DNA of 64,000 nucleotides from a virus, in IMG/VR virus record IMGVR_UViG_3300042561_000572, positions 1-64,000 of that record; one strand, given 5' to 3'. Positions 7,259-27,371 of this stretch are shown here, in pieces. Within the stretch, counting starts at the first letter, position 1, and every line of letters begins with the position of its first letter. The notes beneath the pieces are model-generated. The model saw only the letters and a program-made list of their open reading frames with translations, had not been told where the DNA came from and searched no databases. The translations under genes and the position numbers were made by a program.

Positions 7259-7462
7259 ATGGTTAAGCTAGAGATAAATGATTCATACTGCCATTTTAGA
7301 GCGCCTAGAGAGTTATTAGAAGTACTTAAGGCAACAGGTGCTCCAAATACATATGCAAGAGAAGTATTAATGAAACACTTCAAATTAGATATAGAAGCTA
7401 TTAAAGCAACTAGAAGACAAGAAATGATTGAGCAGCTACAACAACTACAAGAAGCTAACTAA
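7259..7462 (+). CDS. Small putative DNA-binding regulator (RHH/CopG-like)
   Basis: 67 aa; strand-helix-helix pattern HFRAPRELLEVL..YAREVLMKHF; directly behind promoter. Confidence 0.5.
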   Translation: MVKLEINDSYCHFRAPRELLEVLKATGAPNTYAREVLMKHFKLDIEAIKATRRQEMIEQLQQLQEAN

Positions 7463-7463
7463 T

Positions 7464-8966: not shown

Positions 8967-8979
8967 TTAATATAAAACA

Positions 8980-9369
8980 ATGAAAGCACCCACATTAAAA
9001 AGAATAGAAATACCTTCAGACTTTCATAGATCACTAACCAATCTAAGTATTAGACAACACCTAAAATTTAGTGAAGTATTAATAGATGCAATAGATCGTG
9101 GAATATATTATTCAATTAATATTGAAACAACTTCTCCAGTAAATAAAGTAAAAGGAGTAAATATACCTATTGAATCCTATCAAAAACTTGTTGATATAAG
9201 TAAAAAGCAGAACATAAACATTATTGATGTGATAGTTTCTGTTATAGAATTTGGTATTCAAGACCTAGAAGAAGAAGAGTGGTCTGAATCTCCTTTAGGT
9301 ATAGCCTTTGAAAGAGAAATAATGGAGGAAATAGATAGAATGGTTTATTGTGGTTATGGTAGAGATTAA
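8980..9369 (+). CDS. Putative DNA-binding protein with two RHH-like repeats
   Basis: KRIEIPSDFHRSL..EVLIDAIDRGI and KGVNIPIESYQKL..DVIVSVIEFGI. Confidence 0.55.
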   Translation: MKAPTLKRIEIPSDFHRSLTNLSIRQHLKFSEVLIDAIDRGIYYSINIETTSPVNKVKGVNIPIESYQKLVDISKKQNINIIDVIVSVIEFGIQDLEEEEWSESPLGIAFEREIMEEIDRMVYCGYGRD

Positions 9370-9431
9370 CACATAACTAAGAACAGACTCATTATCAATT
9401 CCAACACACTTAGAACTAGAAATACTTTAAA

Positions 9432-9507
9432 TGGTGCATCTTAGATTTGAACTAAGGATTCCTCTCAATAATAGGGAGAGTGGCTTGGACCGCTAGCCTA
9501 ATGCACT
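9432..9507 (-). tRNA. tRNA-like / pseudo-tRNA with 9-nt anticodon loop
   Basis: Acceptor GTGCAT/ATGCAC; D arm GGCT..AGCC; CTCTC-CCTATTATT-GAGAG; T arm CTTAG-TTCAAAT-CTAAG. Confidence 0.7.
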
Positions 9508-9601
9508 AAGGATTTTGATAAAGGGCCACTTACAATCTAACATATAGTAATGTAATAACAACTATATAAACAAGTTACTATTACATTACTAATGTTAAAC
9601 T

Positions 9602-9816: not shown

Positions 9817-10278
9817 TTAATCAAAGAATACACATCTATCTTCAATGACTTCCTTATCTCCATCCAAAAACCTATCAAATGCATCTTCTTCATCAGATGC
9901 AAAGGAGGCCCAACCATCTTGAATATAGACAACACCCTCATTGTCCTCTTCAATGACTTTATGAAAGCCATTGGTATAAGGAATAGAGGCACTAGCTTCC
10001 TCTTTATCAGCATCAATGCCATTGTAGTAACGCCAGAATACAGTTACTGTATTACTAGCTGCTACTGCTTCTGAGATAGTAGCAACTTGCTCCATCTCCA
10101 AGTTTTCCCAAGCAATGATTTGGGCTTCTTGTTCAGAACTAGTGTAAGACTCTATTGCTTGTCTAGCCATAAAAGCCATATCTTCTAGTTCCAACTCTTT
10201 ATACTCTTCTTCAGAGACAGTAGACTTTGCAATAAAAGCCATATCTTCTAGTTCCAAGTTTTCCCAAGCAATAGACAT
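9817..10278 (-). CDS. Highly acidic protein with three internal repeats
   Basis: WENLELEDMAF / YKELELEDMAF / WENLEMEQVAT; AGGAG RBS. Confidence 0.8.
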   Translation of the reverse strand: MSIAWENLELEDMAFIAKSTVSEEEYKELELEDMAFMARQAIESYTSSEQEAQIIAWENLEMEQVATISEAVAASNTVTVFWRYYNGIDADKEEASASIPYTNGFHKVIEEDNEGVVYIQDGWASFASDEEDAFDRFLDGDKEVIEDRCVFFD

Positions 10279-10286
10279 AATAACTC

Positions 10287-10553
10287 CTACAAATTAATTG
10301 TTAAATCAGCAGTCCAGTGAATCTCACCAACATACTTACCAACTTGATAGTTGGCATTAAAAGACTTAATAACACAACCATTAACAATAATGGCTTGATT
10401 CATATTACCCAATACACTGACTAATGCTGCACTAATAATAGGATTATTAGTAACAACATAAACAATAGATCCCATTACTTTGAGATCATTAATAGCATTA
10501 AACAAAGAGTGAGGACTCTCTGTTTCTGCTACTTCAATTAATACTTTTTGCAT
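10287..10553 (-). CDS. Hypothetical protein
   Basis: Probable start MQKVLIEV directly after the GGCCCTTTTAT motif. Confidence 0.6.
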   Translation of the reverse strand: MQKVLIEVAETESPHSLFNAINDLKVMGSIVYVVTNNPIISAALVSVLGNMNQAIIVNGCVIKSFNANYQVGKYVGEIHWTADLTINL

Positions 10554-10641
10554 ATAAAAGGGCCTCTTAGAATACAACATATAGTAATGTAATAACAACA
10601 ACAATCAAGTAGTGTTATTACATTACTAGTGTAAGACTCTA

Positions 10642-11094
10642 TTAGCCAGCAGCAAAATATCCAAAAGCACCAATAGTAAATCCAGTTTCAGGATCAGCAA
10701 TTGTATTAGGACTTACTACATCAGACCGCTTAGCAGCTTGTGCTGTGGGATAAGATGTAATGAAAATCACATCCTCTTGTGGCTCTGGCAATCCTTCAAC
10801 AACGGTCATACCACCAATAGTATGAGTGATGATAGTGCCATCTTCTAGCACCTCATCAAAGGTTGTTGAATCCAATTGCTTTACCTCTGGATTGGGATAA
10901 ACAGAGTTGTCATTGGCTGGCAATACAAACTGTGTATAAACTGCCAAATAAGCAGCAACAGTTGATTCAGACAACTCTTCATTGCTTAGATCAGCAACTT
11001 TGATCTCTCTACCATTCTTTGCTTTACCTTCTACCCAAGGCGCATTAGGAAGTAACTTAACAGAAGGATGGCCAGACAAATTGATGTATTGCAT
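10642..11094 (-). CDS. Conserved phage hypothetical protein
   Basis: INLSGH...GLPEPQEDVIFITS...RSDVVSP pattern resembles a widespread phage family of unknown function. Confidence 0.7.
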   Translation of the reverse strand: MQYINLSGHPSVKLLPNAPWVEGKAKNGREIKVADLSNEELSESTVAAYLAVYTQFVLPANDNSVYPNPEVKQLDSTTFDEVLEDGTIITHTIGGMTVVEGLPEPQEDVIFITSYPTAQAAKRSDVVSPNTIADPETGFTIGAFGYFAAG

Positions 11095-11189
11095 AAGTTT
11101 TATATCTCTATTGTAGAATTGAATAAAAGCTTATCTAACTTCTTAAACTCTATAGTCATATATTTTATACAACTATAGAGTTCAAAGGT

Positions 11190-11403
11190 ATATAACAGTG
11201 TTTGCACCCACCATTACTTTAGCACCTAACCCATTCATCCTTTATGGTGGTCATCTCCATAAATTAGTAACTTTATTTACTATTCAATCAAATATAGGCA
11301 GTTACCTTCTACATTGATTGGCCTCTGCTATAGGTTTGCAAACGACATATCTCTTCACAGAGTTGAAGGTGTGAAGCCCACCTACTTTACCTAAGTAGTT
11401 ATA
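11190..11403. ncRNA. Candidate multibranch structured RNA
   Basis: GTTTGCA..TGCAAAC encloses three hairpins; ORF-free. Confidence 0.4.
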
Positions 11404-11651
11404 CATTTATACAGATTAACTCACCAAGTTATACAACAGTTATGTGTTATACAGAGCTTAGATATATTGTTAATAAGGCTTATAACTAGCATTAATAGCA
11501 ACAATAACATAGACAATACTAACTATCAGCATCTCGCTTGTTGAAATATTATCTATGTTATTACTACTAAACATATCTCTCACTGATTCCTACCAGTTTA
11601 TAAATTCTGCCAACATTAAGCATTAAAGCTAAGGGCCTCAAGAGATAATAT

Positions 11652-11885
11652 TTATTTAACCTGCCAACCAAGAGGAGTCTTAATTGCAACTGGTGCTTTA
11701 TCCTCATCAGTATAAACAGCAACCATCCAAACAGGATCTCTGCCAAGATATAGATCTAGCTCTTCAGCTTCATCAATCATATCAATGACTTGTTGAATAT
11801 TATCAACTGTTGTTTTTTCAAATGGACAGTACTTGGCCCATCCATTATAACCAAGATAAATAGCTCTGATTGTATAAGTAGACAT
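11652..11885 (-). CDS. Hypothetical protein
   Basis: 77-aa ORF, GGAGATAAACTCAC leader. Confidence 0.75.
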   Translation of the reverse strand: MSTYTIRAIYLGYNGWAKYCPFEKTTVDNIQQVIDMIDEAEELDLYLGRDPVWMVAVYTDEDKAPVAIKTPLGWQVK

Positions 11886-11920
11886 GTGAGTTTATCTCCA
11901 ATATAAAGAGTTTATTACAA

Positions 11921-12073
11921 TGATAAGAGTGGGATTTGAACCCACACAAGTTATTCCATTATAGCTTAGTCATCTTGTGACTCTGTACCTTTCTAGGGCC
12001 TTTTTTCAGCTTATAAGTAATATTACCTTGGACCAACATTCACGATGGTTGGGATACCAAACCCATTCTTATC
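11921..12073 (-). ncRNA. 153-nt tRNA-like RNA with large inserted domain
   Basis: Perfect acceptor GATAAGA/TCTTATC-A and canonical T arm GTGGG-TTCAAAT-CCCAC. Confidence 0.75.
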
Positions 12074-12079
12074 TAGCAG

Positions 12080-12292
12080 TTATAGCCAATTATCAATGAA
12101 TTGTTTACATTCTTGCTGACTACCAACAAAAAGCTTTGTATGCCTAAACTTCTTTTGTGTGTGCCACTTAGAAGAATCAACAATAGATAAATTATCAAGC
12201 ACTACAAAAGCTTCAGTTGAAGTTGTAATGTGCCTCTCATTAGAGATATTAGGATCTCTATGAGGATTTTTAACAGTGTAACTACTTCTCAT
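12080..12292 (-). CDS. Hypothetical protein
   Basis: 70-aa ORF, GAGG RBS. Confidence 0.65.
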   Translation of the reverse strand: MRSSYTVKNPHRDPNISNERHITTSTEAFVVLDNLSIVDSSKWHTQKKFRHTKLFVGSQQECKQFIDNWL

Positions 12293-12304
12293 TACTTACC
12301 TCTA

Positions 12305-12589
12305 CTAATTAGGAAAATCAAACTTCAAACCAGAATTAATTGCTTCCCATGCATTAGCATACAAAGAAGATCCTGCCTCTTCAATGCCAGCACTTGTTTC
12401 AACTGAACCATCAATCATCTTGAAACAAATGATTGACTTTGAAGTGTGTAGTATCTGTTTTACAAACATATTATGAACCCACTCTTCAGTATCTTTCAGT
12501 TGATGATCAGCTTCAGATATCCAAGCTTTAACAATTAAGTCAGTGTTAATGTATACATTTTCATCAATCTCTACAAATTTAGCAGACAT
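12305..12589 (-). CDS. Hypothetical protein
   Basis: 94-aa ORF, AGGAGATAAACTCAC leader. Confidence 0.75.
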   Translation of the reverse strand: MSAKFVEIDENVYINTDLIVKAWISEADHQLKDTEEWVHNMFVKQILHTSKSIICFKMIDGSVETSAGIEEAGSSLYANAWEAINSGLKFDFPN

Positions 12590-13026
12590 GTGAGTTTATC
12601 TCCTATTACAAATATTTTATTGAGGGCCAATTACTCTCATCACCAGCTTAACAGTATAGTATATACATACATGCATAACATACATACATATATACACTGT
12701 TACTCAGTCCTTTGAACTGCTGAGTGGGGGTTTAGAGTTGTAAAGACACATAAAATGTCTTTACTACTTTTGTGATAGGGAATTTGCTATAAACTGACAT
12801 AGTTTATTCCCTGTTTTCTTACAGTTACATACCAGCTATTTATACCCTGTTAGATAAGGGGCCCTATATAAATACTACTAACTATAAGCCAGTAAAAGTA
12901 TAAATAGGTTGTAACTGTCCTGCTACCATAGAACCAGGAGGTAATTAAATACTGTAACATACTTAATTAAAAGAGTTTATAACTCCACTAGATATAGGTA
13001 TCTAATAGAGTTATAAACTAGAATTG

Positions 13027-13833
13027 CTAAACGTTTACTTCAGACTCTTCTTTTAAAGTTTCTTCTGCGGTTTTATCACCTTCAGAAGTTTCATTTTTTG
13101 CCCTACTTGCAGTCCATTGAGCAAGATTATGTGCATCAACTTCTGCTTGATTTTCTTCACCCTGCTTCAGCCAAGCCAAAGGATCAGCAGGAACAATTGA
13201 ATTTGCTGAAGCGGCATTAACCACAACAGAGTCAATCAACTGTTGTGCTTTGACTTCTGAATAGATGTTGCTCATATGAGCAACCCAGCCTTCACCTGGA
13301 CATTCTTCAGCAATCTCTTGCTTTTTACCTTTAACCCAAACTGGATTTGTATCTCCAGTTTTAGGATGCTTTTTCAAGGTTTGAATCTCGCTGGCTTGCA
13401 AGATGTAAGAGGTTTCAGTTGTAGGATGCTGACTGAAAGCAACTTTGAAAGTGGCATGTTGACCCTGACCAAAAGACATGTCACTTAAAATATATTCATC
13501 CACAAAGATGAATATAGTCAGTTTTGCAGTGTCCTTGATCGCACCAAATCCAAAAGTGATCTCACCATCATAGTTCAGCGCTTTCACCTTGATCAACTTG
13601 CCAGTCAATCTATAACCCAAGAGTTCTTTCTTGGTGTTGTAAACTGGCTTAGGCTTGTGATTTTTTGTGAATTGCACTGTAACGTAAGCTTCTGGTTGAT
13701 CCTTAGACTTAAGTGCTTCTTGGCATTGAGCAATCACTTGGGGATTACTTGTCACACCCAAAAGCGCCTCAATATCCTCTTTAGGCATAGCCATGTAAGG
13801 ATTTGAAGCTAGCTGTTTATTTAGGCCTAGCAT
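13027..13833 (-). CDS. Hypothetical protein; beta-rich core and acidic tail (possibly OB-fold/SSB-like)
   Basis: 268-aa ORF downstream of the RNAP-like gene. Confidence 0.55.
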   Translation of the reverse strand: MLGLNKQLASNPYMAMPKEDIEALLGVTSNPQVIAQCQEALKSKDQPEAYVTVQFTKNHKPKPVYNTKKELLGYRLTGKLIKVKALNYDGEITFGFGAIKDTAKLTIFIFVDEYILSDMSFGQGQHATFKVAFSQHPTTETSYILQASEIQTLKKHPKTGDTNPVWVKGKKQEIAEECPGEGWVAHMSNIYSEVKAQQLIDSVVVNAASANSIVPADPLAWLKQGEENQAEVDAHNLAQWTASRAKNETSEGDKTAEETLKEESEVNV

Positions 13834-14164
13834 AATTAACTCTCAAACTAATAAATTAATGAATTGATTTTGTAAGTACTAATTAAAACTTTCCTTACTT
13901 CTTGTAATAGGTATCTCTTAAATTTCTTTAAGATTATTTATTACTTCTCGTAATGGGTATCTATATAACAACAACCAGAACAGCTATGCTGCAAAACTTA
14001 GGGAGGAAAATAATATCATATAATACTAACCACTCCTACTAACTCAATAAATAATTTATAAATCTACTAGGTTCCCCTTTTAAAATATAAACTATTTATA
14101 AACCGCTTTTAGAGTGTTTTTCTTATTGGTTTATTATTAAATAATTTATTAGTAAATAAATTAC

Positions 14165-14194
14165 TAATAAAAGGGGCTGTTAAACCCCTTTTAT
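14165..14194 (-). terminator. GC hairpin plus U-tract (GCCCTTTTAT family)
   Basis: AAAAGGGG-CTGTTAAA-CCCCTTTT just past the RNAP-like stop codon. Confidence 0.75.
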
Positions 14195-14199
14195 ATTAT

Positions 14200-17100
14200 C
14201 TACTTGCTAGAATATTGATCATTGATCATATCCTGTTGAGCAGCTTTAAAGATATAACTGCTTACATTATTGTGAATGTAAACACCATTATCCAACATTT
14301 CTTTCAACCAAGGATTGTGCATAGTTTCACTTGCTTTAGATTTATCCAAAGCAGCAAACAAGCTCAAAGGAGAAATGTGATCTTCATCATCCATTTCACT
14401 TGACTCCATCATTTCAAGTTTGGATTCTCTCATGGCTACACCAGCAGGATCAGCGCCTTGACCCATTCTTCTTAAACCACCATAGATATAGGATTCAAGA
14501 AGTTCAGTCTCAGTTTTAATGAGTTTAGTAACCTTACTACCTTTCTCCATACCAGTAAAGAATGTTCTAGTACGTTCAGCTTCTAGAATAAAGCTCATAG
14601 CTCTATACATTAGATTGTAATAAGAGTTAGAACCATCTTCTTTAGTCTTACCAACCCAGAATTTAGACAATCCATTGCCATCTTCTTCTTCTTCACCTAG
14701 ATAAAGAAGAGTCTTAACAGCATCAATGACTTTATCTTCTTTAGTAACACGTTGGTCAGATGGATACATATATTCTCCATCTTTATAAACAAATGTACCA
14801 GTCATTTTAGAAGCACCAAGAATGGCAAACCATTTAGTTGCAGCAGCAGAATAACCTGCAAGACCTAAGCCTTCATATAAGGCCCTCCAAGCAATGACAA
14901 CTGCCAATTTCAAAGCTTTAACATTGGCTAGATCTTCTGCTTTATTAGAGTACAAGATGTTAGCAAGCTTAAAGGTTAAAGCAGATGCAATACCATAGGC
15001 AATACCAACAGCAGCAACGTAGTGCTTTTGTACCAACTCACCAGACTCAAAGTAACCAATATGTTCTTTACCATCTTCATCAGTATAAGAATACTTAGAA
15101 ATAGTAGAAACATAAGGCTTACAATACTTAGCTTTATCAGCAGCATTGTCCCACTTGAGCCATTTCTTCTTAGGCTTTTCAGAGAACTCAGCATAAGGCC
15201 AGTTAGAAACATCTTCTCCATAAACAATCTTGTAGCCCTTAAGACCAACCCAAGAATCATTCATTTCATTGACATCTTTAGCACCTAAACCTCTAATACC
15301 AAGATTCAATACTGATACACCATCACCATCAGTATCACCTTCATTAGCCATAGACCAAAGATAAGGTAATAGAAACATGTGGCTTCTACCAACCTTCTCA
15401 GTCACGACAAGTTTAGCACCTAGACCCATAAACATAGGAATACGGAATGCAGCTACAAACTCACCATTTAGAAGATAGGGATTAAAGTAGAGAGCAACTA
15501 AACCATCTTTAGTCTTCTTGCATCCAACATAAATACAAGATTTATTAGGTTTATGATCTTCAGTTTCAAAGGCATCACCATTAGTATCACCCTCAGCACC
15601 AAAGTTGTTAAGTACAACTTCTTCTATATACTTAGAGTAGAATCTACCTTTAGCATCCTTAGCAAGAAGATGAGTAGCCATACAATCAGGATTCATAGCT
15701 ACCTTTGGAATACCATCAGCATCAGATTGCAAGAAGATATAATAAGCAGTTCTAACCTTCAAGTTGACTAAACACTTGCTAGTTCTAGCAGCACGTTTTA
15801 GTACACCCTTAGACTCAAATGCTTGTCTCAACCAACCCTTCAAAGACTTCTCAAGTTTACAAGTCTTCTTGTAAAAGTAGCTATCATATCCAGACTTAGG
15901 AGGATTAACAATAGCTCTTAAAAAGCCAACAATCTCTTGAGCCATTTGATCAGCAGAGCCACTGATCCATACCATTGTAGATCTAATGATATCAAAGTCT
16001 AAATACAAGATAGAATTACTACCTTCATGATTATTAGCTTTCAAATATAAACCATTAGGATACAACAGCTTATAAGCATCAAGAACTTTAGAGTCAGAAA
16101 GTCCATCCAAAGAACCAATTTTAGCCATCAATTCCTTCTGCTCTTTAGAATCATTAAGATTAACAGAGTTGTTAATAGTAACTTCCTTAGACTTAGTTAC
16201 CATATTAACTAAACCTAGAACAGCTTTTCTAGCTTCTTTGGACTCAAGATATAGCACTTCTGCCAATCTTCTAGACTGAATAGAGATACCAGCTTGCATC
16301 TCAGGAGTCATACCAGAAAGAGATATTGATTCATCAGGTGTGCTAATTTCAACCTCAAAGTTGAGATTACAAACAAGAATTTGAATGTGTTCTCTAACAG
16401 TAACATATCCATCATGTTCAATGACAGACACAATACCAGATAGTTTATCTTGTTTGTCAGATTTGGTAGCATGAGCAGCTACAAGCATATCCCATTCATC
16501 TCTAGCAATGTCAACCTCTAGTAAAACATCTTTAGCTTCAGACTGAACCCAATCAGAGATGATGTTATCCGCTAATGTAACATCTACATAATGTTCTCCA
16601 CCTTCAATAGAAACAAGAGCATCATTAGGGAAATAAACAGCGTCAACACCAACTGTATTAGCAAAAGCATCAATGTGAACACTTCTACCCTTGATAGTCT
16701 CGTTGTTAAACAACATTTCAACATTAAGATCAATGGCATTACCTTCCATGTCATAGAAGTTAAAGTCCATTGGAGTAGTAGTATTCTTAGTGAAATACCT
16801 TCTATTCTTTACAAGCTGAGTAGATGATAAAGCTTCTACTTTGAATTCAACATTGAAATAGGCAGGTTCATAGTCTGCATCAGCCACTTCAACATGTCTT
16901 ACACTTGCAGAAATAACTCTAACAGGAATGTTAGGAAAGTCATTTTTAACAACAATCTTAGTGCCTGGAAATGTTTTGACATCTAAAATAGTTTCACCAG
17001 ATTCAAACAATCTATCTTTATCAATTGCTTCAATCTTAGCAGCAACTCTAGATATGAGATAGTAAAAAGCATGATGCTTTTTAAATCCATGCTTAACACC

Positions 17101-18840
17101 CATATCTTTAAACTTGGCAATAGTTTGAGTATTAAAGTCATGTAGAGAGATTCTACCTTTTAGAGTCTTTTCAATACCACAATGACATTCAACATCAGGT
17201 CTTGTAAATACACCACCTGAACCTGCACTAAGACCAGAATTGGATATACCAATAGATCTTAATACACCTTCTTGTCTAAGAATAGTTCCATCAGGGAGCA
17301 TAGTACCAAACAAGGATTTAGTTCTAGCTTTAATAGCATAATTATTAGAAGTGTATTGTTCAGCTTTCAAGAACTTGCAAGATTGCATTGGTCTATTCCA
17401 CAATTTAGATGGTTTGCCTGCATCATGTAGAGTATAAACCCATTTACCACCATCACCAATCAAAGCAGCATTAGCAGCAGTTCTACCTCCAAAGAATTTA
17501 AGAAGATACTTGTCACCAGTAACAATACCTTCTTCTTCTAAACAAGCTTTAACCGCTTGCATATCTACCTTTTTAGTAGGATTACCTACCACAAGCCAAG
17601 GGAAACATGAATTAAATGTTCCTGCAAAGTTAGAATACATTTGTAAAGCGTTAGAAGCATTCATAGGGATTGCAACTGCTGGATCAGTCTCCTCAGTTTT
17701 AACCCCATAATTAGGATCTTCAACCCACAAAGTAGGAGTTTTATTGACAAGACCAGCAACTTGCCAAGTAGATATATCAGGTCTAGCAATAGCTTGTGCA
17801 AAGTAGAATAAACCTACTAAACCTTTAACAGTTGCACCTCCAAGTACTACATTGTTAACAGAGTAATAGGAGTCTTCAGAGGTATGTAGTATACCTTTAT
17901 TGAAGTCAACACTGAACCCACCGCCAGGTTTAGTTACGGTTGCAACACCTTCTTTGTGTGTAGTATTAACACTAAGAATAGAGAACAGTTCAGCCATTTT
18001 ATCTGAAGATAAATCAGACATCCAAGAAGCAGCATGAGCAGCAACAAAGTCAGATACTTCATGTGTATATAACACATTAGTTACATCTTCATGTTCATCT
18101 TTGTTGTAGGGAATAAGATAAATTTCTGAATCACCTTTATGTCCTACAACCTTTTGATATCCATCAAGATATCTATATTTAAACTTAGAACCTACCAGTT
18201 TAACTTCTTTACCATTAGGTGTAACAGTGGTAGATTCTGTAGCATGATAGATTTCAACACCAACAGAAAGTAGGAAGTTAATCCAAGGATATACCAAAGA
18301 AGCAGACTTTTTGGTAGACACCAACAACAACTTTTTATTAGCTGGAAGAGCCAAAGGACAAATGCTATTAGTATGGTAGAAATCAACCAACTTATTAGCT
18401 TGCATAGTCCATGCATCGGTTTCCTTATAGGGAATAGAGTATAGAACCGCAGCTTCCAATTCACTAGTTTCACCAGCAACTGAAGTCAAGTTATTAACTT
18501 TTGACAGTTGAGTTGCAGCATCAATCTTAGAAGGAACGACCTTCTTATCAGTTCTAATAACAGGAGAATAAACAGCAGGCGTTCTGACTGATTTAGGCCA
18601 CATAGTATCAGGTTGTAGTAGATCTTTACAAGCAGAAACCACAGCAAAGAAAACATTCAAAGCAAGCTTAGAAACTTGAGCAGGTTGAGTAACCTTCTTC
18701 ATAGCTTTAGCAGCCTTTTTAGCAGCTTCAGCCTTAAACTTAGCTTCATGGTGAGCAGTCTTTTCTGCTCTCAAAGCATTAGCCTGTTCAATCAAAGTAG
18801 AAGACATACGAGGATTCTTGGTCTTGTTCTTAGTAGACAT
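14200..18840 (-). CDS. Single-polypeptide two-barrel (beta/beta-prime-like) DNA-dependent RNA polymerase, YonO-like
   Basis: 1546 aa; AAFRIP followed by NEGDTDGDG (15322-15336), matching the R-x-P and DxDGD catalytic elements. Confidence 0.75.
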   Translation of the reverse strand: MSTKNKTKNPRMSSTLIEQANALRAEKTAHHEAKFKAEAAKKAAKAMKKVTQPAQVSKLALNVFFAVVSACKDLLQPDTMWPKSVRTPAVYSPVIRTDKKVVPSKIDAATQLSKVNNLTSVAGETSELEAAVLYSIPYKETDAWTMQANKLVDFYHTNSICPLALPANKKLLLVSTKKSASLVYPWINFLLSVGVEIYHATESTTVTPNGKEVKLVGSKFKYRYLDGYQKVVGHKGDSEIYLIPYNKDEHEDVTNVLYTHEVSDFVAAHAASWMSDLSSDKMAELFSILSVNTTHKEGVATVTKPGGGFSVDFNKGILHTSEDSYYSVNNVVLGGATVKGLVGLFYFAQAIARPDISTWQVAGLVNKTPTLWVEDPNYGVKTEETDPAVAIPMNASNALQMYSNFAGTFNSCFPWLVVGNPTKKVDMQAVKACLEEEGIVTGDKYLLKFFGGRTAANAALIGDGGKWVYTLHDAGKPSKLWNRPMQSCKFLKAEQYTSNNYAIKARTKSLFGTMLPDGTILRQEGVLRSIGISNSGLSAGSGGVFTRPDVECHCGIEKTLKGRISLHDFNTQTIAKFKDMGVKHGFKKHHAFYYLISRVAAKIEAIDKDRLFESGETILDVKTFPGTKIVVKNDFPNIPVRVISASVRHVEVADADYEPAYFNVEFKVEALSSTQLVKNRRYFTKNTTTPMDFNFYDMEGNAIDLNVEMLFNNETIKGRSVHIDAFANTVGVDAVYFPNDALVSIEGGEHYVDVTLADNIISDWVQSEAKDVLLEVDIARDEWDMLVAAHATKSDKQDKLSGIVSVIEHDGYVTVREHIQILVCNLNFEVEISTPDESISLSGMTPEMQAGISIQSRRLAEVLYLESKEARKAVLGLVNMVTKSKEVTINNSVNLNDSKEQKELMAKIGSLDGLSDSKVLDAYKLLYPNGLYLKANNHEGSNSILYLDFDIIRSTMVWISGSADQMAQEIVGFLRAIVNPPKSGYDSYFYKKTCKLEKSLKGWLRQAFESKGVLKRAARTSKCLVNLKVRTAYYIFLQSDADGIPKVAMNPDCMATHLLAKDAKGRFYSKYIEEVVLNNFGAEGDTNGDAFETEDHKPNKSCIYVGCKKTKDGLVALYFNPYLLNGEFVAAFRIPMFMGLGAKLVVTEKVGRSHMFLLPYLWSMANEGDTDGDGVSVLNLGIRGLGAKDVNEMNDSWVGLKGYKIVYGEDVSNWPYAEFSEKPKKKWLKWDNAADKAKYCKPYVSTISKYSYTDEDGKEHIGYFESGELVQKHYVAAVGIAYGIASALTFKLANILYSNKAEDLANVKALKLAVVIAWRALYEGLGLAGYSAAATKWFAILGASKMTGTFVYKDGEYMYPSDQRVTKEDKVIDAVKTLLYLGEEEEDGNGLSKFWVGKTKEDGSNSYYNLMYRAMSFILEAERTRTFFTGMEKGSKVTKLIKTETELLESYIYGGLRRMGQGADPAGVAMRESKLEMMESSEMDDEDHISPLSLFAALDKSKASETMHNPWLKEMLDNGVYIHNNVSSYIFKAAQQDMINDQYSSK

Positions 18841-18929
18841 AATAATTAGGTTGTGAGTTTATTAATTAAGATGCTGTATTGCATCTAAGAAAAAGGGGGC
18901 CAATTAAGGCCCTCTTTTAACTATAATGT

Positions 18930-20222
18930 CTATAGATCTACATCAGCAAATTCATCATCTGCTTCTGCTTGTTTATTGGATGCATTAAGCCAATCCATAG
19001 GATTAGCAACAGCAACAGGTTGTACAATCAATTCTTCTTCAAATGCAAGAGCTTCATCTACCATTTCATCAGAAGAGACAACAGAATCTCCAAGAGCTTC
19101 GTTTACCAATTCATCAGATGAAGGAGTAATAGCAACAGAAGGAGAAGCTAATAATGCTTGAGCAGCATCACCAACCTTCTGAATCAGTTGCACTCTCAAA
19201 GAGCCCATAAGAAGTTCATGATTACTCATTGTGTAATGAGCATTGAGTCCACGCTTAGCAATGTAGCTGAGTGAAGCTTCATAGCCGTGGTCCCAATTAC
19301 CTGCTTCAACAGCAGCAATCAAACCCTTCTTGGCATCAAGATGAGCCTTTTTGCCAGTGCCAATCTTAGCAAGAGACATCTCTTGTTTGATTTCAATAGC
19401 TTCAAAGAAAGCATCAGGCAATGTTTTATTGCCATCGGCATTCAACTCATCTTCTGCCATTGCAGCAAGACCAGCAGCAAAGCCTCTTTCAAGTCTTGCA
19501 TTGCTGACCACATTTCTAGGTTTAGGATTGTAGACAGTCTTGCCTTCTTCAAAGACAACAGCAATGATTGCTGGCTCCAAGAAGACCTTGTAACCACCTC
19601 CACCTTCACCTTCATGGCGCTTGTCAAGTTCCACAGTGTCTCTCACATGAGTTTTATTCATGGAAAAGTAAACAGTGAGAAGACCCTTTTCAGTCTTCAT
19701 AGTGTCAACAAGATTGTCCAAAGAACCATCATCATTGAAGGTCAGCTTGGCGTAGTTAGCACCATAAGTAGTCTGAAAGAAAGCACGTTGAAACCTGCCA
19801 TTGAGCTTAGTCTCTTTCAAAACTGCTCCAGAAAGAGGAGGACAAGGCTTGTTTTGAGAAAGAAACAAAGCCTTGATAGCCTTATCATCTTCACTCTCTT
19901 CAAGCTGAAGAACTGACAGATTAAGTGCAAAATCGGTATCAGGAATGAATTTGTCTTGATCATCATAACTGCCAATTGTATTGTCAATCTCCCAAAACAG
20001 ACGCTGATTTTTGGCGTTGAGCTTCATCATGCCACAACCACCAAGACCAGTGATTGTTCTCATCCACCTGCCTTTAGCCTGTTCTTTAAGAACAGAGGAA
20101 GGGTTAGCATTGAGATCAAGTTTAAACACCCTTGCACCAGATGCAACTTCATCCTTGACCTTCTGAAGGTAGTCAGCAGTAGAAGCATCAGAAGAAGAGG
20201 CAGACTTAGTTAGAAAAGCCAT
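18930..20222 (-). CDS. Hypothetical protein with acidic C-terminal tail
   Basis: 430 aa, ends EADDEFADVDL; directly upstream of the RNAP-like gene. Confidence 0.8.
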   Translation of the reverse strand: MAFLTKSASSSDASTADYLQKVKDEVASGARVFKLDLNANPSSVLKEQAKGRWMRTITGLGGCGMMKLNAKNQRLFWEIDNTIGSYDDQDKFIPDTDFALNLSVLQLEESEDDKAIKALFLSQNKPCPPLSGAVLKETKLNGRFQRAFFQTTYGANYAKLTFNDDGSLDNLVDTMKTEKGLLTVYFSMNKTHVRDTVELDKRHEGEGGGGYKVFLEPAIIAVVFEEGKTVYNPKPRNVVSNARLERGFAAGLAAMAEDELNADGNKTLPDAFFEAIEIKQEMSLAKIGTGKKAHLDAKKGLIAAVEAGNWDHGYEASLSYIAKRGLNAHYTMSNHELLMGSLRVQLIQKVGDAAQALLASPSVAITPSSDELVNEALGDSVVSSDEMVDEALAFEEELIVQPVAVANPMDWLNASNKQAEADDEFADVDL

Positions 20223-20306
20223 GATATTAATTATCCTGTCAGATTATTATCTACACTGTATTGTATAGATAATAAAAAGGGCCCAAGATAAGGCCCTTAA
20301 TACTAG

Positions 20307-21185
20307 TTAGCTTAAAGCATCAGCAAGCGCTTCATCAAGATTGACAAAGCTTTGGTTCATAATACCATTAGCAGTACCGCTATCATTAATATGACACCAT
20401 TCAAAATTATAATAGCCACCATCAACATAAGCACTAACCCCATCTGTCAGAAAAGGAGAGTCATGAACAATAGATTGCCAATGAATCCTTTCAACATAGA
20501 CATCCCTATGTAAGCATCTAGTCAACATAGAGCTAGGGAATACAGTGGCAGTCCACCCATCAATCCTACCACTATTAAACAAACGGTGAATTAAACACTC
20601 AAAGTTGTTTAATGTCTCTTGAGTCACTTCATTAGTAACTCTATCCAACAACACAGACTTAGCAAGTCTAATTAAAGACTTAGAGAAAGGCTCAGGTCTA
20701 TTGTCATCTTCCATGAAATCATTGTGTGATTCATAGCCAAAGAAACAATTAGGAAAAGGAAGATCAGTGTACAAAAACTCCAAATCACCGTCATCATCTC
20801 CACCATTAGCATAGTTGTTAGTAGTAGTTTCAGGATTAGACCAACCACCTGTCAGATACAATTCAATCTCATTGGTCTCTTTGAAAATCCTCCATTGAAT
20901 GTAATGATCAGGGTGATAACCTAATGCCAATCTAGAATCATTCTCCCAATCAGAAGTGGGTTTACAACCAGCAAGCCAAGTAGCTTGTCTAGCCAAATGT
21001 GGTGGAAAGTTACACATATGAGAACAAAGAAGTGTACCCTCTTCACCAGTTACTGAATCTCTAACATCAATCAAGCTGTCAAAAACATCACTAGCTGAAG
21101 TGATGTTGATCATGTCATTATACTCTTGATCAGGAGTATTTACATTAGAAGCAAGGACAAAGCGGCGTGTAGTAACATAAGACAT
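20307..21185 (-). CDS. Acidic hypothetical protein
   Basis: 292-aa ORF. Confidence 0.8.
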   Translation of the reverse strand: MSYVTTRRFVLASNVNTPDQEYNDMINITSASDVFDSLIDVRDSVTGEEGTLLCSHMCNFPPHLARQATWLAGCKPTSDWENDSRLALGYHPDHYIQWRIFKETNEIELYLTGGWSNPETTTNNYANGGDDDGDLEFLYTDLPFPNCFFGYESHNDFMEDDNRPEPFSKSLIRLAKSVLLDRVTNEVTQETLNNFECLIHRLFNSGRIDGWTATVFPSSMLTRCLHRDVYVERIHWQSIVHDSPFLTDGVSAYVDGGYYNFEWCHINDSGTANGIMNQSFVNLDEALADALS

Positions 21186-21306
21186 AGTAATTACCTAGCA
21201 CTTGTAATGAGTTTGTAATGTGCTAAATAAAAGGGCCTTATAATGGGCCCTTAATACTATAAGTTAACTAATGTAATCTCAGGGAGCAAAACAATAGTTA
21301 ACATTG

Positions 21307-21945
21307 TTAATGTTGTCTAGGATAGTTTAAAATCCACTCTTTAAAGTCACTCCAATCCTCTTTATCTTTAACAAGACATCTATCAATGATGTCATTATCA
21401 TCATACTGCTCAAGCATAGAATAGCCCAAGTCAACAAGCCTAATAACACATCTTCCATTTACCTCTGTCAACATAATGTTGTTGTATAACCCGTCAACAT
21501 TATTACCTTCAACCTTTAACACACATGGTTGTCTTTTAATGTCTCCATGAGTCCAGCCAGACTCCCACAATTGCTGTAATTGTTCTTCAGCAACTTCAAT
21601 AGCTACTGTAATCTCCTCAACTGTAAAAGCAGTTGGCAAACATGGAAATAATCTTTCCATCATAATCAAATCACCAATGTCTTGCACAGGAATATGCTCC
21701 TTTATCTTAACAACCAAGTCATTAAAACTATTGGCCCATTGTAATGACAACACTTCTGCTAGCACATCACCATCTTTAAATGTACTCCAAACAGCACCAC
21801 CACAAGTCTCAATAGACTTAACAACTGTAACATCATTCAAAGCATACACACTGCCTTGAAAACCACTAGCTAATAGTTTAGCTTCAGGTAAAAATTCCAA
21901 TACAACTTGTTGGATATTAGACATATTACAAATAACTAACTGCAT
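21307..21945 (-). CDS. Protein kinase (Ser/Thr kinase-like fold)
   Basis: LASGFQGSVY Gly loop, VVK, HGDIK catalytic loop, NIM, LVDLG. Confidence 0.9.
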   Translation of the reverse strand: MQLVICNMSNIQQVVLEFLPEAKLLASGFQGSVYALNDVTVVKSIETCGGAVWSTFKDGDVLAEVLSLQWANSFNDLVVKIKEHIPVQDIGDLIMMERLFPCLPTAFTVEEITVAIEVAEEQLQQLWESGWTHGDIKRQPCVLKVEGNNVDGLYNNIMLTEVNGRCVIRLVDLGYSMLEQYDDNDIIDRCLVKDKEDWSDFKEWILNYPRQH

Positions 21946-21989
21946 TTATATATTGTGAGTTTATGCAGTTTATACTCCTAAATAAAAGG

Positions 21990-22560
21990 GCTGAAGGCAG
22001 CCACATTTATCTAGTTATGATCATTTATTTATACTGGTTGTAACTCTCCAGATATCTTATTTAGTTGTATATTTAATTGTGTATTTAATTTGTATGTAGT
22101 AAACAACATCTTTTAAAATCAACTAAGAGAATGACCAGTCTTTCAGGCCACATGGTTATTGTTATTGATGGTATGAGGACCAACAACTACAGATTCAATA
22201 ACATTTAAGGAAAACGCTAAGTAACCCCTTTACTATTTCTCTTCTTAAGGATGAAGGAAAGCCACATTATTGCCTTTCTACTACTTGCGTTGGGACTATC
22301 AAGACTTTTAGATGCATTGCACTAGACTGTCACTCTATACATTCTAAAAGGTTCTCAAAGAGAAGCCTAAAAGGGCTTGTTAGGTAATAACAAGATAGTA
22401 GTTACAATAAGAGGTGACTCTCATTGGTGTAGTATTAGGGATTCTTTGTACTCATGCATAGTCCTACAGTCATCTAGCAATAACAAGGCGGTTAATCTTA
22501 TTACAGTACTATCTAGATAACATCTATACATGGGTCCTGCCAATTATCACTTGCAGTTTA
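21990..22560 (-). ncRNA. Candidate large (~570 nt) structured ncRNA
   Basis: ORF-free, bounded by conserved hairpin elements, many stems and a 5'/3' long-range pairing. Confidence 0.6.
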
Positions 22561-22605
22561 TATATTGTTAATTAAAAGGGCCATAGAATAGGCCCAATTA
22601 ACTAA

Positions 22606-22968
22606 TTAGTTATCATCATACCAATCAATGCCTTCACCATCATCTTGTTCTAAGAAAGAAAGATGTTGTTCAACCTTCTTGTCATAGAAAACTTGTGGAA
22701 TTGGAAAGCCCAACAGTTTATTCAACTTAGCTCCAATCTTCCAAGCTAGAGATTCGTCAGACCAATCCTTACCTTGTCTAAAGGCAAACATATGACCTAC
22801 TTCATGCAAAGTAGAACAAAACATGTCCATCCTACTTGTTGCAATGGTAGAGATGTAAATATAATCCTTACCAAGCAGTTGCATATAATGACTGTCTTCT
22901 GGCCCATAAACCAAAGTAAAGTTATAGCCAGAAGCAAGAGATTCATCCATTGTATTGAAATAAGACAT
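22606..22968 (-). CDS. HExxH zinc metallopeptidase-like protein (ImmA/IrrE-like)
   Basis: STLHEVGH...DESLAW. Confidence 0.7.
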   Translation of the reverse strand: MSYFNTMDESLASGYNFTLVYGPEDSHYMQLLGKDYIYISTIATSRMDMFCSTLHEVGHMFAFRQGKDWSDESLAWKIGAKLNKLLGFPIPQVFYDKKVEQHLSFLEQDDGEGIDWYDDN

Positions 22969-23173
22969 TGTATTTACCTAGCACTTTTGAGTTTTGATTT
23001 AAGTTTGTGCTAAATAAAAGGGCCTCTTACTTAGGCTGTTGGTTATAGTATAAATATAGGGATAGGGAGCAAAGAGACTCAAACATAGAGTTAGTTCCAC
23101 ACCAACTGAATGCCATATGTTTAGAGTATCTCCAATCCAAATAAAAGGGCCAATTAAGACCCTTTTATTTTAG

Positions 23174-23590
23174 TTATAGACCACGTTCAGCCATTTGCTG
23201 AACAAGGAAATTAGATAAGAAATCCAATTGATCTTTCACAATTAGATTGTCTTCTTGAACCTTTTTAGCAGCATCAAAGCTGTTAAGTAGATTCTGAGCA
23301 GAAGCAAAGTTAGTCTTCACTTGCTCAATGACAAAAGACTCTGCATCAGCCTTAGCTTTAGCAGAAGTAACAGCCTTTTCAAGTTCTACAAGTCTATCAG
23401 TTGAAGCAACATGAACTGCTTTGAATTGATCAGCAAGAGCCAAAGCATCAGCCAATTTCTTAGCCTCTGCCTCCTTAGCTTCTTGTTCTGCTTGAGCAGC
23501 CAATGTATCAGCTTCAGCCTTTGCTTTAACAGCATTAGCGTTAGCAATGAGCTGGTCAAGAAGAGCAGCAGGTGTTAATGTAGTAGACAT
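23174..23590 (-). CDS. Ala-rich coiled-coil protein, paralog 1
   Basis: Closely similar to 24077-24490; probable start MSTTLTP. Confidence 0.8.
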   Translation of the reverse strand: MSTTLTPAALLDQLIANANAVKAKAEADTLAAQAEQEAKEAEAKKLADALALADQFKAVHVASTDRLVELEKAVTSAKAKADAESFVIEQVKTNFASAQNLLNSFDAAKKVQEDNLIVKDQLDFLSNFLVQQMAERGL

Positions 23591-23671
23591 GAGTTTCATT
23601 TATAGTGAGAGGGTAAAGTAAATTCTCACTTAAATAAAAGGGTCATAGAATAGACCCTTTTATTTATTTAG

Positions 23672-24001
23672 TTATAGAAGACCCAACTTACGTTGTTCAG
23701 CTTCCATTGCAATAATCATCTGATCAATTGCAGCATTACCAGCAACTAGATCAGGCATTGTTGCCTTAGCAGCAACAAGCTTTTTATTGCTCTCAGTAAC
23801 AGCCAAGAAAGCAGCAGTTGCTTTCTCTTGTTCTGCCCTGATTTGCATGTTGTAAGCTTCATACTCAGCCTGCTTCTTAGCCATAACTTCCATTTTATCA
23901 GCCTTAGCCTTTGAAGCCTGCATTTCTGCAAGTTGCTCAGGTGTGGGTTGATAGCTAGGAGCTACAGTCTTAGAAGGAAACAACCAAGAAAAGATAGACA
24001 T
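23672..24001 (-). CDS. Ala-rich coiled-coil protein, distant paralog
   Basis: TPEQLAEM..AKA and C-terminal RKLGLL resemble its neighbours. Confidence 0.75.
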   Translation of the reverse strand: MSIFSWLFPSKTVAPSYQPTPEQLAEMQASKAKADKMEVMAKKQAEYEAYNMQIRAEQEKATAAFLAVTESNKKLVAAKATMPDLVAGNAAIDQMIIAMEAEQRKLGLL

Positions 24002-24076
24002 GAGTTTCATTTAACCTGGTGAATAAGAGATCCAGATAAATAAAAGGGCCAAATTAATGACCCTTTTATTTATTAG

Positions 24077-24490
24077 TTATAGACCTCTAGACTTCATCTG
24101 ATCTACCAAGAAATTAGACAAGAAGTCCAATTGATCTTTAGTAGCAAGATTAGCTTCTTGCACTGCTTTTGCTTCATCAAATGAATTGAGAAGCTGTTGA
24201 GCAGAAGCAAAGTTAGACTTCACTTGTTCAACTACAAACACTTCAGCATCAGCTTTAACCTTTGCTTCAGTAGCAGCTTTTTCAAGCTCTACAAGTCTAT
24301 CAACTGATGCCTTGTGTAGAGGCTCAAACTGATCAGCCAAAAGCAATGCATCAGACAGTTTCTTGTCTTCAGCAGCTTTAGCCTCAGCCTTAGCTTTCAG
24401 GTCAGCAGCCTCTTGTTCTGCTTTTGCTTTAGCAGCATTAGCATTAGAGATCAACTGGGCCAAAAGTTCAGAAGGTGTTAGTACAGACAT
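24077..24490 (-). CDS. Ala-rich coiled-coil protein, paralog 2
   Basis: GGAG RBS, start MSVLTP; shares DRLVELEKA and KDQLDFLSNFLV with 23174-23590. Confidence 0.8.
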   Translation of the reverse strand: MSVLTPSELLAQLISNANAAKAKAEQEAADLKAKAEAKAAEDKKLSDALLLADQFEPLHKASVDRLVELEKAATEAKVKADAEVFVVEQVKSNFASAQQLLNSFDEAKAVQEANLATKDQLDFLSNFLVDQMKSRGL

Positions 24491-24558
24491 TTCATTCTCC
24501 AGGGTGTAAAGTATTTCCCTAAGTAAAAGGGTCAATTAAGACCACAATTACTTACTAT

Positions 24559-24879
24559 CTATTTAGATAGAAGATCAATCCACTTGTCTGCATTAGGTAC
24601 TTGACCCTTTGCATAACAATGTAAAACTGCATTAATACAGTTTATACAATTAATAGGATAATCTGGATCTCTGATAGACCAGTTCCTATTAATGTGGATG
24701 ATCAATTCTTCACACCAAGTGACATACATTGCTGCTTTAAGCTCAACATTTTCATGTTGAGGAAGCAGATTTGCAAATCCCTGGAATTTAGAATGACATT
24801 GAAGCTTATCTGAAACTGCCCTTAGAATGAGTCTAGAGGAGTAGATAAAGTTCTTTGTTTTCTTAGTTGAATTGAACAT
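24559..24879 (-). CDS. Hypothetical protein
   Basis: 106-aa ORF. Confidence 0.7.
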   Translation of the reverse strand: MFNSTKKTKNFIYSSRLILRAVSDKLQCHSKFQGFANLLPQHENVELKAAMYVTWCEELIIHINRNWSIRDPDYPINCINCINAVLHCYAKGQVPNADKWIDLLSK

Positions 24880-24956
24880 GTTTTTCTTTATTTATCTACG
24901 GTCATAGGTTATACACATAGATAAATAAAAGGGCCATAGAATAGACCCTTTTAATT

Positions 24957-25403
24957 TTATCCTGTATAAAACTCACCAAACTCTTTAGTCAAGAGTTTAT
25001 GAGAGATCTGAAGCAAAGGCTCCCAGGACAATGATTTGTCCCAAAGAACCATTTGCATATGATCTTTAAGCATGGGAATTCCATGCTGACCATATTGATG
25101 CCAATCTCTATGATCAGCATTAAAACGGCCCCAAACATTCTTGTAAATGCAAATATCATCCACAAGAACCTCCCCAATAGGAGGTAAAATGCAGGCAAAT
25201 TTGCCTTGTAAGACTTTTGCGATATTAATAGCATTAGCCTTACTGCCACAATAAATTGTGACATCTTTGCCTTCTTGACCACTCTTGCCAACTTTGTAGT
25301 TGACATTAAGAGTTGCCAAAAACTGGCCAATCCTCTTACCTTCTTGAGTATGAAGATGAAGTTTCCAGCCACAATTGACAGAATGTTGTTTGAATTCTTT
25401 CAT
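24957..25403 (-). CDS. Stand-alone phospho-Ser/Thr lyase-like protein (LanKC/LanL N-terminal, OspF family)
   Basis: GWKLHL...YK...GKDVTIY...DD....VWGRF parallels GWKIHVS..FK..GKFITIYP..SD..YxRYG. Confidence 0.7.
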   Translation of the reverse strand: MKEFKQHSVNCGWKLHLHTQEGKRIGQFLATLNVNYKVGKSGQEGKDVTIYCGSKANAINIAKVLQGKFACILPPIGEVLVDDICIYKNVWGRFNADHRDWHQYGQHGIPMLKDHMQMVLWDKSLSWEPLLQISHKLLTKEFGEFYTG

Positions 25404-25735
25404 TTAGTTTAGCTCCTTGCTAATAATCAAATAAAAGGGCCTATTACAGCCCTTCTATTAGTACTACTTCATCATATAGCCCTTGCTATTGATGTGGTTA
25501 GCACACTCTCTTGGACTAGGAGCCCAAGAGAGTTTCCTTTGACTATGGATACACCTTGTATCTACATAGCTAATAAAAAGGGCTAAACGCTTAACTTTTT
25601 AATAATCACATGTTAATTCTAACTAACATTGAAAATTTTCTGCACATAGGGTAAGGGGGGGGCATGTACTACTACTATAAGCCCAAAAATCCTCCACATG
25701 TACCTCTAAAATAAAGATTTTTCATATAAATCTTA

Positions 25736-26068
<333 letters not shown>

Positions 26069-26213
26069 TATATACATATAACAAGTTATTAACACATTAC
26101 AAATAATATAAAAAGAGCTAAATAAGTATAATAAAATATATAAACTAACATGTTATAATTAAAACAATACATACAATTAATTTATACAACCATCCATCCA
26201 TTATTTATAAACT

Positions 26214-27371
26214 GTGAAGATTAACTCAACACTCTATTTACAAAAGCCCAACTTAGCTACTCTCTACTATGTTATAAGACATTATGACAAGAAGGGGGCT
26301 GGTTGGGTTTGTGTAAGTATAAGTAAACTAGTTAAGATGAGCAAACTGTCTTTAAGTACTATTTATAAGTTATTAAAAGAACTATTATCTAGCAATTGGA
26401 TATATAACTATGAGTTAAAAGGTAATAGTAAAAACAGTAAAGGACAAGTATATATTAAATATGTAAGTGATATAAAAATACTAACTAACACATATAACAT
26501 AAAGGTTAAACCCCTCTACGTTGTAGCACCATACAAGTTGTTATATAACAAAGCAGCTATTAAGGGGCGTTGTTATTTGGGCCAAATGAATTTTAATCAG
26601 GCTGTAGTAGAAAACAAGTTAGATTATTCTATTGGTAAGAGAAAGATAAAGGGTGAACTACTTCCTTTATCTACTGTTAAAGCAGAAAACAAAAGACTTA
26701 GATATCCCACTAATAAGGCTAAAGTTGGCCCTCTAGATAGTACGAGTATCAACGACTTAAAATCAGCAATAACAGGTAAATGTTATGACAGCAATACTAG
26801 TAATTATGGCTCTGTTCAAGAACATATAAGCTATGCAATTAAAGGGCAGCATGGTGTGAAAGTTCTAAACAAAAGCAGTTACAAAGTAGCAGCTATAACA
26901 TCACAAACCTTAGCTAATAAGCTTAATGTTAACAGAAGAACAGTTGATAAGTATTTGAAACAATACTCTAATAATAGAGTTAAGTTATATAGAAGATGTT
27001 CTCTTATTGAAGCAACAACAGAAGCACCTTATGTTATTTGGGACATAGATGAAGACAGAGGTATATGTGATGCATATAGACCTTTACCATTCCTTTATAC
27101 AAAGAATGTTTTACACTCACATCAAAGAGCTTTAATTAAAAAGCCTCTTATCTCATATTTAAACAATGAGCAATTAGAAGTGGCTAAACTTTGTGCTATT
27201 ACAAAAGGTTTTAGTAATGATAATGAAGGTGCTGAAGCTTATTTAAAGAAGACAGGTTTAGTTAGATTTAAGAAAAATACTAACTCTCTATCTGACAAGC
27301 CAAAGATTTACAATAGTTATTACTTGTACAAGGGCCAACTAACAACTGAACCTGCTACTGTATACTTATAA
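26214..27371 (+). CDS. Basic DNA-binding protein with two HTH motifs (replication-initiator-like)
   Basis: SISKLVKMSKLSLSTIYKLLKEL and SQTLANKLNVNRRTVDKYLK; GTG start. Confidence 0.6.
   Translation: MKINSTLYLQKPNLATLYYVIRHYDKKGAGWVCVSISKLVKMSKLSLSTIYKLLKELLSSNWIYNYELKGNSKNSKGQVYIKYVSDIKILTNTYNIKVKPLYVVAPYKLLYNKAAIKGRCYLGQMNFNQAVVENKLDYSIGKRKIKGELLPLSTVKAENKRLRYPTNKAKVGPLDSTSINDLKSAITGKCYDSNTSNYGSVQEHISYAIKGQHGVKVLNKSSYKVAAITSQTLANKLNVNRRTVDKYLKQYSNNRVKLYRRCSLIEATTEAPYVIWDIDEDRGICDAYRPLPFLYTKNVLHSHQRALIKKPLISYLNNEQLEVAKLCAITKGFSNDNEGAEAYLKKTGLVRFKKNTNSLSDKPKIYNSYYLYKGQLTTEPATVYL

Follow-up and report, generated by a model that had tools for sequence, protein, structure and literature searches.

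A probable new large structured non-coding RNA gene in an uncultured virus related to cyanophages

Few classes of bacterial or phage RNA are known to exceed 500 nt in length. One RNA of this size is ColE1 RNA II, which is about 550 nt long. Among the large phage RNAs, which are closest to the locus described here in size class and context, a member of the ROOL class, env-120, measures 659 nt, and expression of GOLLD rises in phage lysis (10.1101/2024.12.08.627333). OLE, GOLLD and ROOL all form unexpected RNA-only assemblies (10.1101/2024.12.08.627333). Here we describe a gene slot on the minus strand of a 64,000-nt stretch of viral DNA (hereafter the window) that is probably a new gene for a large structured non-coding RNA (ncRNA), as judged from two sequences, with a predicted transcript of about 555 nt.

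The predicted RNA is like ROOL in its similar size, its many hairpins, its encoding by a phage as a stand-alone gene and the absence of an associated protein. However, ROOL often lies near tRNA islands, whereas no tRNA lies within 12 kb of the slot (tRNAs at 2204–9508), and ROOL belongs to Firmicutes or rumen phages, whereas the slot lies in a virus related to cyanophages. GOLLD is likewise phage-borne, large and structured, but many of its members exceed 800 nt and often adjoin tRNAs, in contrast to the ~555 nt of the slot RNA with no tRNA nearby. ColE1 RNA II matches in its nearly equal length, multiple hairpins, sigma-70 promoter and A/T-rich region toward the 3′ end, and differs in that the slot RNA has an intrinsic terminator and no clear antisense promoter, skew turn or sequence similarity. 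Finally, trans-acting, protein-binding folded RNAs of the 6S RNA and CsrB/RsmZ type offer an analogy for the mode of action that we favour, although the slot RNA, read by eye, has neither the rod-with-bubble shape of 6S RNA nor the repeated GGA loop motif of CsrB.

Searches against known families agreed with these differences. Rfam scans of both available copies of the slot, at gathering thresholds and at lax thresholds (E up to 10), returned noise far below the cut-offs with no family in common to the two copies, and no match to ROOL, GOLLD, an intron, RNase P, tmRNA or 6S RNA in either; ROOL at the gathering threshold had no match anywhere in the window, and ARAGORN found no tRNA or tmRNA in the slot. 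The scans of both copies thus bear out an initial annotation, made from the window sequence, that the candidate is neither ROOL nor GOLLD. We rejected retron, DRT and group II intron RNAs because no reverse transcriptase (RVT_1) matched across the 94-kb record from which the window derives and no intron family appeared in the Rfam scans, and an OMEGA guide RNA because there is no TnpB or IscB neighbour, the flanking proteins in both phages being without a Pfam or PHROG family. A literature search found no description of this RNA, and no large RNA has been described from its lineage, the myoviruses whose capsid protein shares about 44% identity with its counterpart in Microcystis phage Ma-LMM01. 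The slot RNA would therefore be a new family among large structured phage RNAs; ROOL and GOLLD resemble it in size class and in being phage-borne, and differ from it in sequence, in model match and in tRNA neighbourhood.

The window makes up positions 1–64,000 of an IMG/VR virus record of 94 kb, whose completeness CheckV puts at 56%. The record encodes a portal, a protease, a major head protein and a tail sheath, and the head protein is 41–45% identical to those of the Microcystis phages Ma-LMM01 and MaMV-DC and the Microcoleus phage My-WqHQDG, an identity that makes the source virus probably an uncultured myovirus of cyanobacteria. The slot (21946–22605, minus strand) lies within an arm of small minus-strand genes (9.8–25.4 kb) without Pfam or PHROG families, between an upstream gene for a 120-aa protein (22606–22968) and, directly downstream, a kinase-like gene of 212 aa (21307–21945), both on the minus strand. 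Behind nearly every gene of the arm stands a terminator-type hairpin, GGGYC-loop-GRCCC followed by UUUUAUUU. One copy of this repeated element is found at each end of the slot (22595–22578 and 22002–21989), with its U run on the minus strand only, and the slot is therefore bounded like a gene.

Within these boundaries we found no open reading frame longer than 47 aa (translation table 11). Hidden coding through recoded stops was rejected, since no frame opened: stop-to-stop frames within the slot reached at most about 60 aa with TAG read as glutamine or TGA as tryptophan, and at most 86 aa with TAA read as glutamine. Comparison with the second copy of the slot, in a related record (G001), gave the same picture. 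The indels between the two measure 1, 1, 23, 1, 1, 17, 24, 1 and 7 nt, mostly not multiples of three; the longest open frames of the two copies (61 and 66 aa) differ in position and frame, with none in common; transitions and transversions stand at 41:43; and stops interrupt all frames, leaving no conserved reading frame. The initial proposal of a gene slot that lacks an ORF and lies between two hairpin elements therefore holds.

The slot appears to carry its own transcription signals. At its 5′ boundary, a terminator-type hairpin, GGGCC-8-GGCCC with a U run (22578–22595, minus strand; terminator scan), ends the upstream 120-aa gene and is kept in G001. It is followed by a sigma-70-like promoter (22543–22571, minus strand) that consists, by consensus match, of TTAACA (22571–22566), a 17-nt spacer and GATAAT (22548–22543). 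With 10 of 12 consensus positions, this site is the first listed of the joint-highest promoter-like sites in 13500–26500, four others tying with it. Both hexamers are identical in G001 while three spacer bases differ, and by eye, intergenic spacers elsewhere in the arm have a short leader hairpin and no comparable promoter. At the 3′ end, the terminator scan identified an intrinsic terminator (21978–22014, minus strand) with a core stem at 22002–21989 followed by CUUUUAUUU; G001 retains this terminator with a stem that differs in sequence, helix 21 having one compensatory and two wobble changes. Placing the start 5–7 nt past the −10 hexamer (about 22536–22538) and the end in the U run after the terminator (about 21981–21985) gives a predicted minus-strand transcript of about 555 nt (21981–22538). 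The conserved promoter and terminator, and hence both predicted ends, are consensus matches, and ends this clean make in vitro synthesis and direct tests of folding, oligomerization and partners feasible.

We next considered how well the slot is conserved. Ten IMG/VR contigs carry a head protein 84–100% identical to that of the window, and five of them were searched over their full length. Of these, only G001, a 107-kb contig whose head protein is 90% identical, spans the arm in which the slot lies. Its homologue of the slot (11001–11582, minus strand; BLAST 77% identity over 533 nt, E 3e-117, 413 bits) scores higher than any other DNA match between the two phages in the 14–26 kb arm. In the slot body, 84 of 471 aligned columns differ (82% identity), and averaging column identity across the full alignment, with the terminator, gives 85%. 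Proteins of the arm common to both phages are 25–68% identical, four-fold sites in five shared genes are 44–61% identical, and the head (capsid) gene, the best-kept structural gene, is 83% identical in nucleotides. Conservation of the slot is thus on par with the capsid gene and far above the four-fold sites of shared genes, which implies a function that the phage cannot easily lose, although, given the shuffled neighbours, the high identity could come in part from a more recent cassette exchange.

Indeed, the two phages arrange their genes differently around the slot. The kinase-like gene, adjacent to the slot in the window, is found 3 kb from it on the opposite side in G001, where the gene downstream of the slot is an unrelated 458-aa ORF. 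The upstream gene is swapped as well: the 120-aa protein of the window, which has an HEVGH (HExxH) motif, is replaced in G001 (L013:2019–2435) by an unrelated 138-aa protein, and the two genes still share a leader hairpin (GCAC...GTGCTAGGTAAAT) and their first three codons, ATG TCT TAT. This pattern points to cassette exchange at conserved boundaries; with neighbours replaced and boundary elements kept, the RNA cassette persists while protein genes turn over.

Wider searches returned the same pair of copies. BLAST of the slot and the surrounding 9 kb against 50,697 phage records gave no match, nor did BLAST and a covariance model of the domain IV described below (R1) against Ma-LMM01, MaMV-DH01, My-WqHQDG and G002; the model found only the window and G001 copies. 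BLAST of the slot against G003–G005 likewise gave no match, and the silence of G002–G005 is uninformative because these records end before the arm. Three exact-pattern scans of IMG/VR recovered G001 and otherwise chance 20-mers, an exact-pattern scan of JGI metagenomes gave 46 matches, all by chance except the source contig of G001 itself, and scans of viral and genome collections anchored on the kinase-like and 385-aa neighbours recovered G001 only. Public metagenomes (ENA, Logan and JGI) contain 59 relatives of the kinase-like neighbour, so further copies of the RNA are probably present there, and a proper covariation model should be attainable.

To assess structure, we compared folding of the minus strand with that of shuffled sequences and obtained z-scores of −4.7 for the 660-nt slot, −3.1 for the 559-nt transcript and −1.9 for the G001 copy. 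The plus strand of the window copy also folds well (z −3.6), and folding energy alone therefore cannot decide the strand. Changes on both sides of a pair were more discriminating. An exhaustive count of helices kept in both copies (at least 5 bp, span up to 150) found 17 double-changed pairs, against 2.0 ± 1.4 (maximum 7) in 300 column shuffles and 9 on the plus-strand reading. When local folds were made from one sequence and scored on the other, with span limits of 40–120, we counted 6–10 compensatory pairs on the minus strand where about 1.6 were expected (P ≤ 0.007 for each span limit), and the number of broken pairs was below expectation; the plus strand gave 2–5 compensatory pairs (P 0.03–0.5). 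The global minimum-free-energy fold of the window copy alone was not significant (3 compensatory and 26 broken pairs), a result attributed to wrong long-range pairs, and was dropped for local folds.

Coding sequence at equal identity behaved differently. Capsid-gene controls had 0–3 double changes (0.00–0.07 of changed pairs), compared with 7 and 10 (0.29 and 0.23 of changed pairs) for the RNA, although one of 28 coding controls, at a lower identity of 74%, reached 0.27. A domain-wise consensus of 147 pairs in 21 helices, which was chosen on the alignment and pairs at 100% by construction, contains 18 double-changed pairs, against 0–2 when partners are slid by 1–3 columns. The two large indels are complete hairpins in themselves, forming two small stems in the window copy and GUGGGU-UAU-ACCUAC in that of G001, and one hairpin loop, in the domain IV described below, changes from GAAA to GCGA between the copies, maintaining a GNRA loop. 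At least ten predicted local hairpins are kept through double-sided pair changes, a significant excess over three kinds of control that is drawn from two sequences, too few for R-scape-type statistics and for the standard usually set for a new RNA class.

These results bear on the possibility that the slot is an inert spacer or decayed gene, conserved by recent cassette exchange, in which the hairpins and paired changes arose by chance. The mosaic arm, with its differing gene order and a slot neighbour swapped between conserved boundary elements, would fit such a spacer, as would the restriction to two sequences and the one coding control that came near the compensatory fraction of the RNA. 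The excess of compensatory pairs together with the deficit of broken ones and the low counts in capsid controls, promoter hexamers kept while the spacer between them varies, and large indels that correspond to whole hairpins all argue the other way, and a pseudogene would not retain both promoter and terminator. We therefore regard an inert spacer as quite improbable, and a functional structured RNA gene as likely. The stand-alone ncRNA of about 570 nt that was initially proposed is supported, on two sequences, by the absence of a reading frame, the conserved promoter and terminator, the level of conservation, the compensatory hairpins and the absence of an Rfam match.

The consensus divides the predicted RNA into five domains on the minus strand. 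Domain I (22450–22535) is a long 5′ hairpin of three stacked helices (helices 1–3; 28 pairs, 6 of them double-changed) that recurs in the single-sequence fold of G001. Domain II (22281–22432), taken from the consensus folds, comprises an invariant 9-bp hairpin, CAAUGAGAG/CUCUUAUUG, the stem CUUGUUA/UAACAAG and a long hairpin, CUUUUAG...CUAAAAG, with a conserved apical loop GUGACAG; compensatory changes fall at pairs 152–162, 206–218 and 208–216, and its closing helices are uncertain. Within it, by alignment and by the fold of the window copy, a 23-nt segment (22352–22374) is specific to the window, forms small hairpins of its own and is not in G001. Domain III (22199–22276) has three short hairpins (helices 10–12) with conserved loops, namely AAUAAUGUG, a purine-rich loop and UCCUU, and contains 4 double-changed pairs, including A–U to U–A and G–U to U–G in one 8-bp stem. 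Domain IV (22090–22198), a multi-branch of hairpins that includes GUGGCC/GGUCAU, is the best-conserved block, with 91% column identity and 5 double-changed pairs in helices 13–18. An A/U-rich linker (22061–22089; GC 0.28), in which the alignment reveals a 24-nt tandem duplication (22064–22087) that is not in G001, leads to domain V (22027–22060), a small hairpin AUAUCUGG...CCAGUAU whose helices 19–20 have one wobble change and no double-sided change.

The initial annotation had described an ornate RNA on the basis of seven pairings, all of whose word pairs are present in the sequence, and the alignment with G001 divides them. Four are kept there: CAATGAGAG/CTCTTATTG as an invariant 9-bp helix with its sole change in the loop, CTTGTTA/TAACAAG with one compensatory and one wobble change, CTTTTAGA/TCTAAAAG with wobble changes only, and GTGGCC/GGTCAT with two compensatory changes. 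The other three fail. By eye, TTATCTAG/CTAGATAA loses 3 of its 8 pairs; TGTTATTGA/TCAATAACA is split by a 17-nt insertion, its UGUUA half pairing instead in a hairpin with two compensatory changes (helix 12); and in GGACTAT/ATAGTCC a U-to-A change disrupts the pairing and is compensated elsewhere, in a helix where ACUAC/GAUAGU becomes UCUAC/GAUAGA (pair 140–247). On the G001 alignment and the consensus we rejected the long-range pairs of this proposal. The domain-wise fold and a global RNAalifold prediction agree on local hairpins and differ in long-range helices, which never vary, and two candidate tertiary pairings (207–213/318–324 and 62–66/309–313) each reuse a changed column that a hairpin already explains. 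The local hairpins of the proposed structure therefore stand, whereas an ornate global architecture is not established by the models, its long-range helices being invariant, dependent on the prediction and without covariation.

The explanation that we prefer, with somewhat better than even confidence, is that the slot is a minus-strand stand-alone gene for a structured ncRNA of about 555 nt that is made by the host polymerase and acts in trans. Host RNA polymerase would synthesize the RNA from its own sigma-70-like promoter early in infection, a timing suggested by its position in the minus-strand arm of small genes and by the dedicated promoter, and given this extra promoter the RNA may be made at a higher level than its neighbours. 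It would then act in trans as a folded particle, a mode suggested by neighbours that are not conserved, which argues against action in cis, and by the absence of an antisense target in the phage. Invariant loops and junctions would bind a host or phage protein, or copies of the RNA itself, so that during host take-over the RNA would be a scaffold or decoy and not an antisense regulator or cis leader; we put forward the scaffold or decoy role tentatively, as a possibility that is less likely than the gene itself. The modest thermodynamic excess in G001 and a promoter that is a consensus match weigh against this explanation.

Some early phage RNAs are known to target host transcripts, and the slot RNA could instead be a trans base-pairing regulator or sponge, whose unpaired stretches pair with host mRNAs, tRNAs or small RNAs while the hairpins serve mainly for stability. 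Long invariant unpaired runs (AAUAACCAUGUG and CCUUCAUCC) and the pyrimidine-rich loops UCCUU and CCUCAU are what such an RNA might present to its targets. However, a search of both phage genomes found neither a second copy nor an extended complementary target, and a length of about 555 nt with more than ten hairpins is far larger than that of typical base-pairing RNAs, and we give this alternative little credence.

A slot that is conserved at the DNA level, has a sigma-70-like promoter and would specify a structured ~555-nt RNA with an A/T-rich tandem-repeat tract near its 3′ end (22061–22089; GC 0.28) could also be a replication origin, at which the transcript primes in the manner of ColE1 RNA II or of T4 and T7 origin transcripts by entering an A/T-rich unwinding tract. 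Several features argue against this. An intrinsic terminator lies about 60 nt beyond the A/T tract, the tract is 24 nt shorter in G001, there is no turn in GC skew at 22 kb, and the repeat-rich divergent region at 25.4–26.2 kb would be more typical as an origin. The marks of a ColE1-type primer, a lack of termination and an antisense RNA I promoter, were not found: the terminator closes the unit, and opposite its 5′ end the plus strand has a single promoter-like site (22537–22566), a weak one that matches 9 of 12 positions. An origin primer is thus less probable again than a base-pairing RNA or an inert spacer. Least probable is a cis-acting leader or 3′ UTR that exerts riboswitch-like or attenuator control over the kinase-like gene, since the slot, although it ends in a terminator directly upstream of that gene in the window, precedes the unrelated 458-aa ORF in G001, has a terminator that is not special in an arm where nearly every gene carries such a hairpin behind it, and is far longer than known leaders.

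If the slot is indeed a stand-alone gene for a trans-acting RNA, it might define a new class: large phage RNAs that work as RNA-only machines early in infection and pass as an exchangeable cassette among probable cyanophages. Such a machine could possibly be a self-assembling multimer like the cages of ROOL and GOLLD, a ribozyme or an anti-defence decoy. We consider this broader proposal rather unlikely.

Several further elements were observed in the window. ARAGORN predicts five tRNAs at 2204–9508, among them two tRNA-Ile(TAT) and, at 9431–9508, a tRNA-Asn whose anticodon, ATT, is unusual, and Rfam at the gathering score supports only three of the five. GC content is 0.35–0.39 in the minus-strand arm (10000–26000), against 0.24–0.34 across most of the remaining window. 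Between 14000 and 25600 on the minus strand, each terminator-type hairpin is followed by a second small leader hairpin immediately ahead of the start codon (for example ATCTATG...CGTAGAT and AGTGAGA...TCTCACT), with no Shine–Dalgarno-like sequence there; these leader hairpins may be processing or translation-control elements. A mini-slot at 23013–23138 on the minus strand is also free of ORFs and is flanked by two GGCCCTTTTATTT hairpin elements; its core, UCUUUGCUCCCUAUCCCUAU(A/G)UUUAU, is kept in G001, and the mini-slot might represent a small RNA or a binding site. An intergenic region (25404–26213), from which the minus-strand arm and the genes on the plus strand diverge, has long simple repeats of the (TAA)n, (TAAG)n-like and (AACT)n types and is a possible origin or main early promoter region. 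At 25851–26024 on the minus strand lies an ORF for a conserved small protein of 57 aa (MADKNKLD...), which is 81% identical in nucleotides to G001 14160–14342 and has its frame kept there, but at a different position in the arm.
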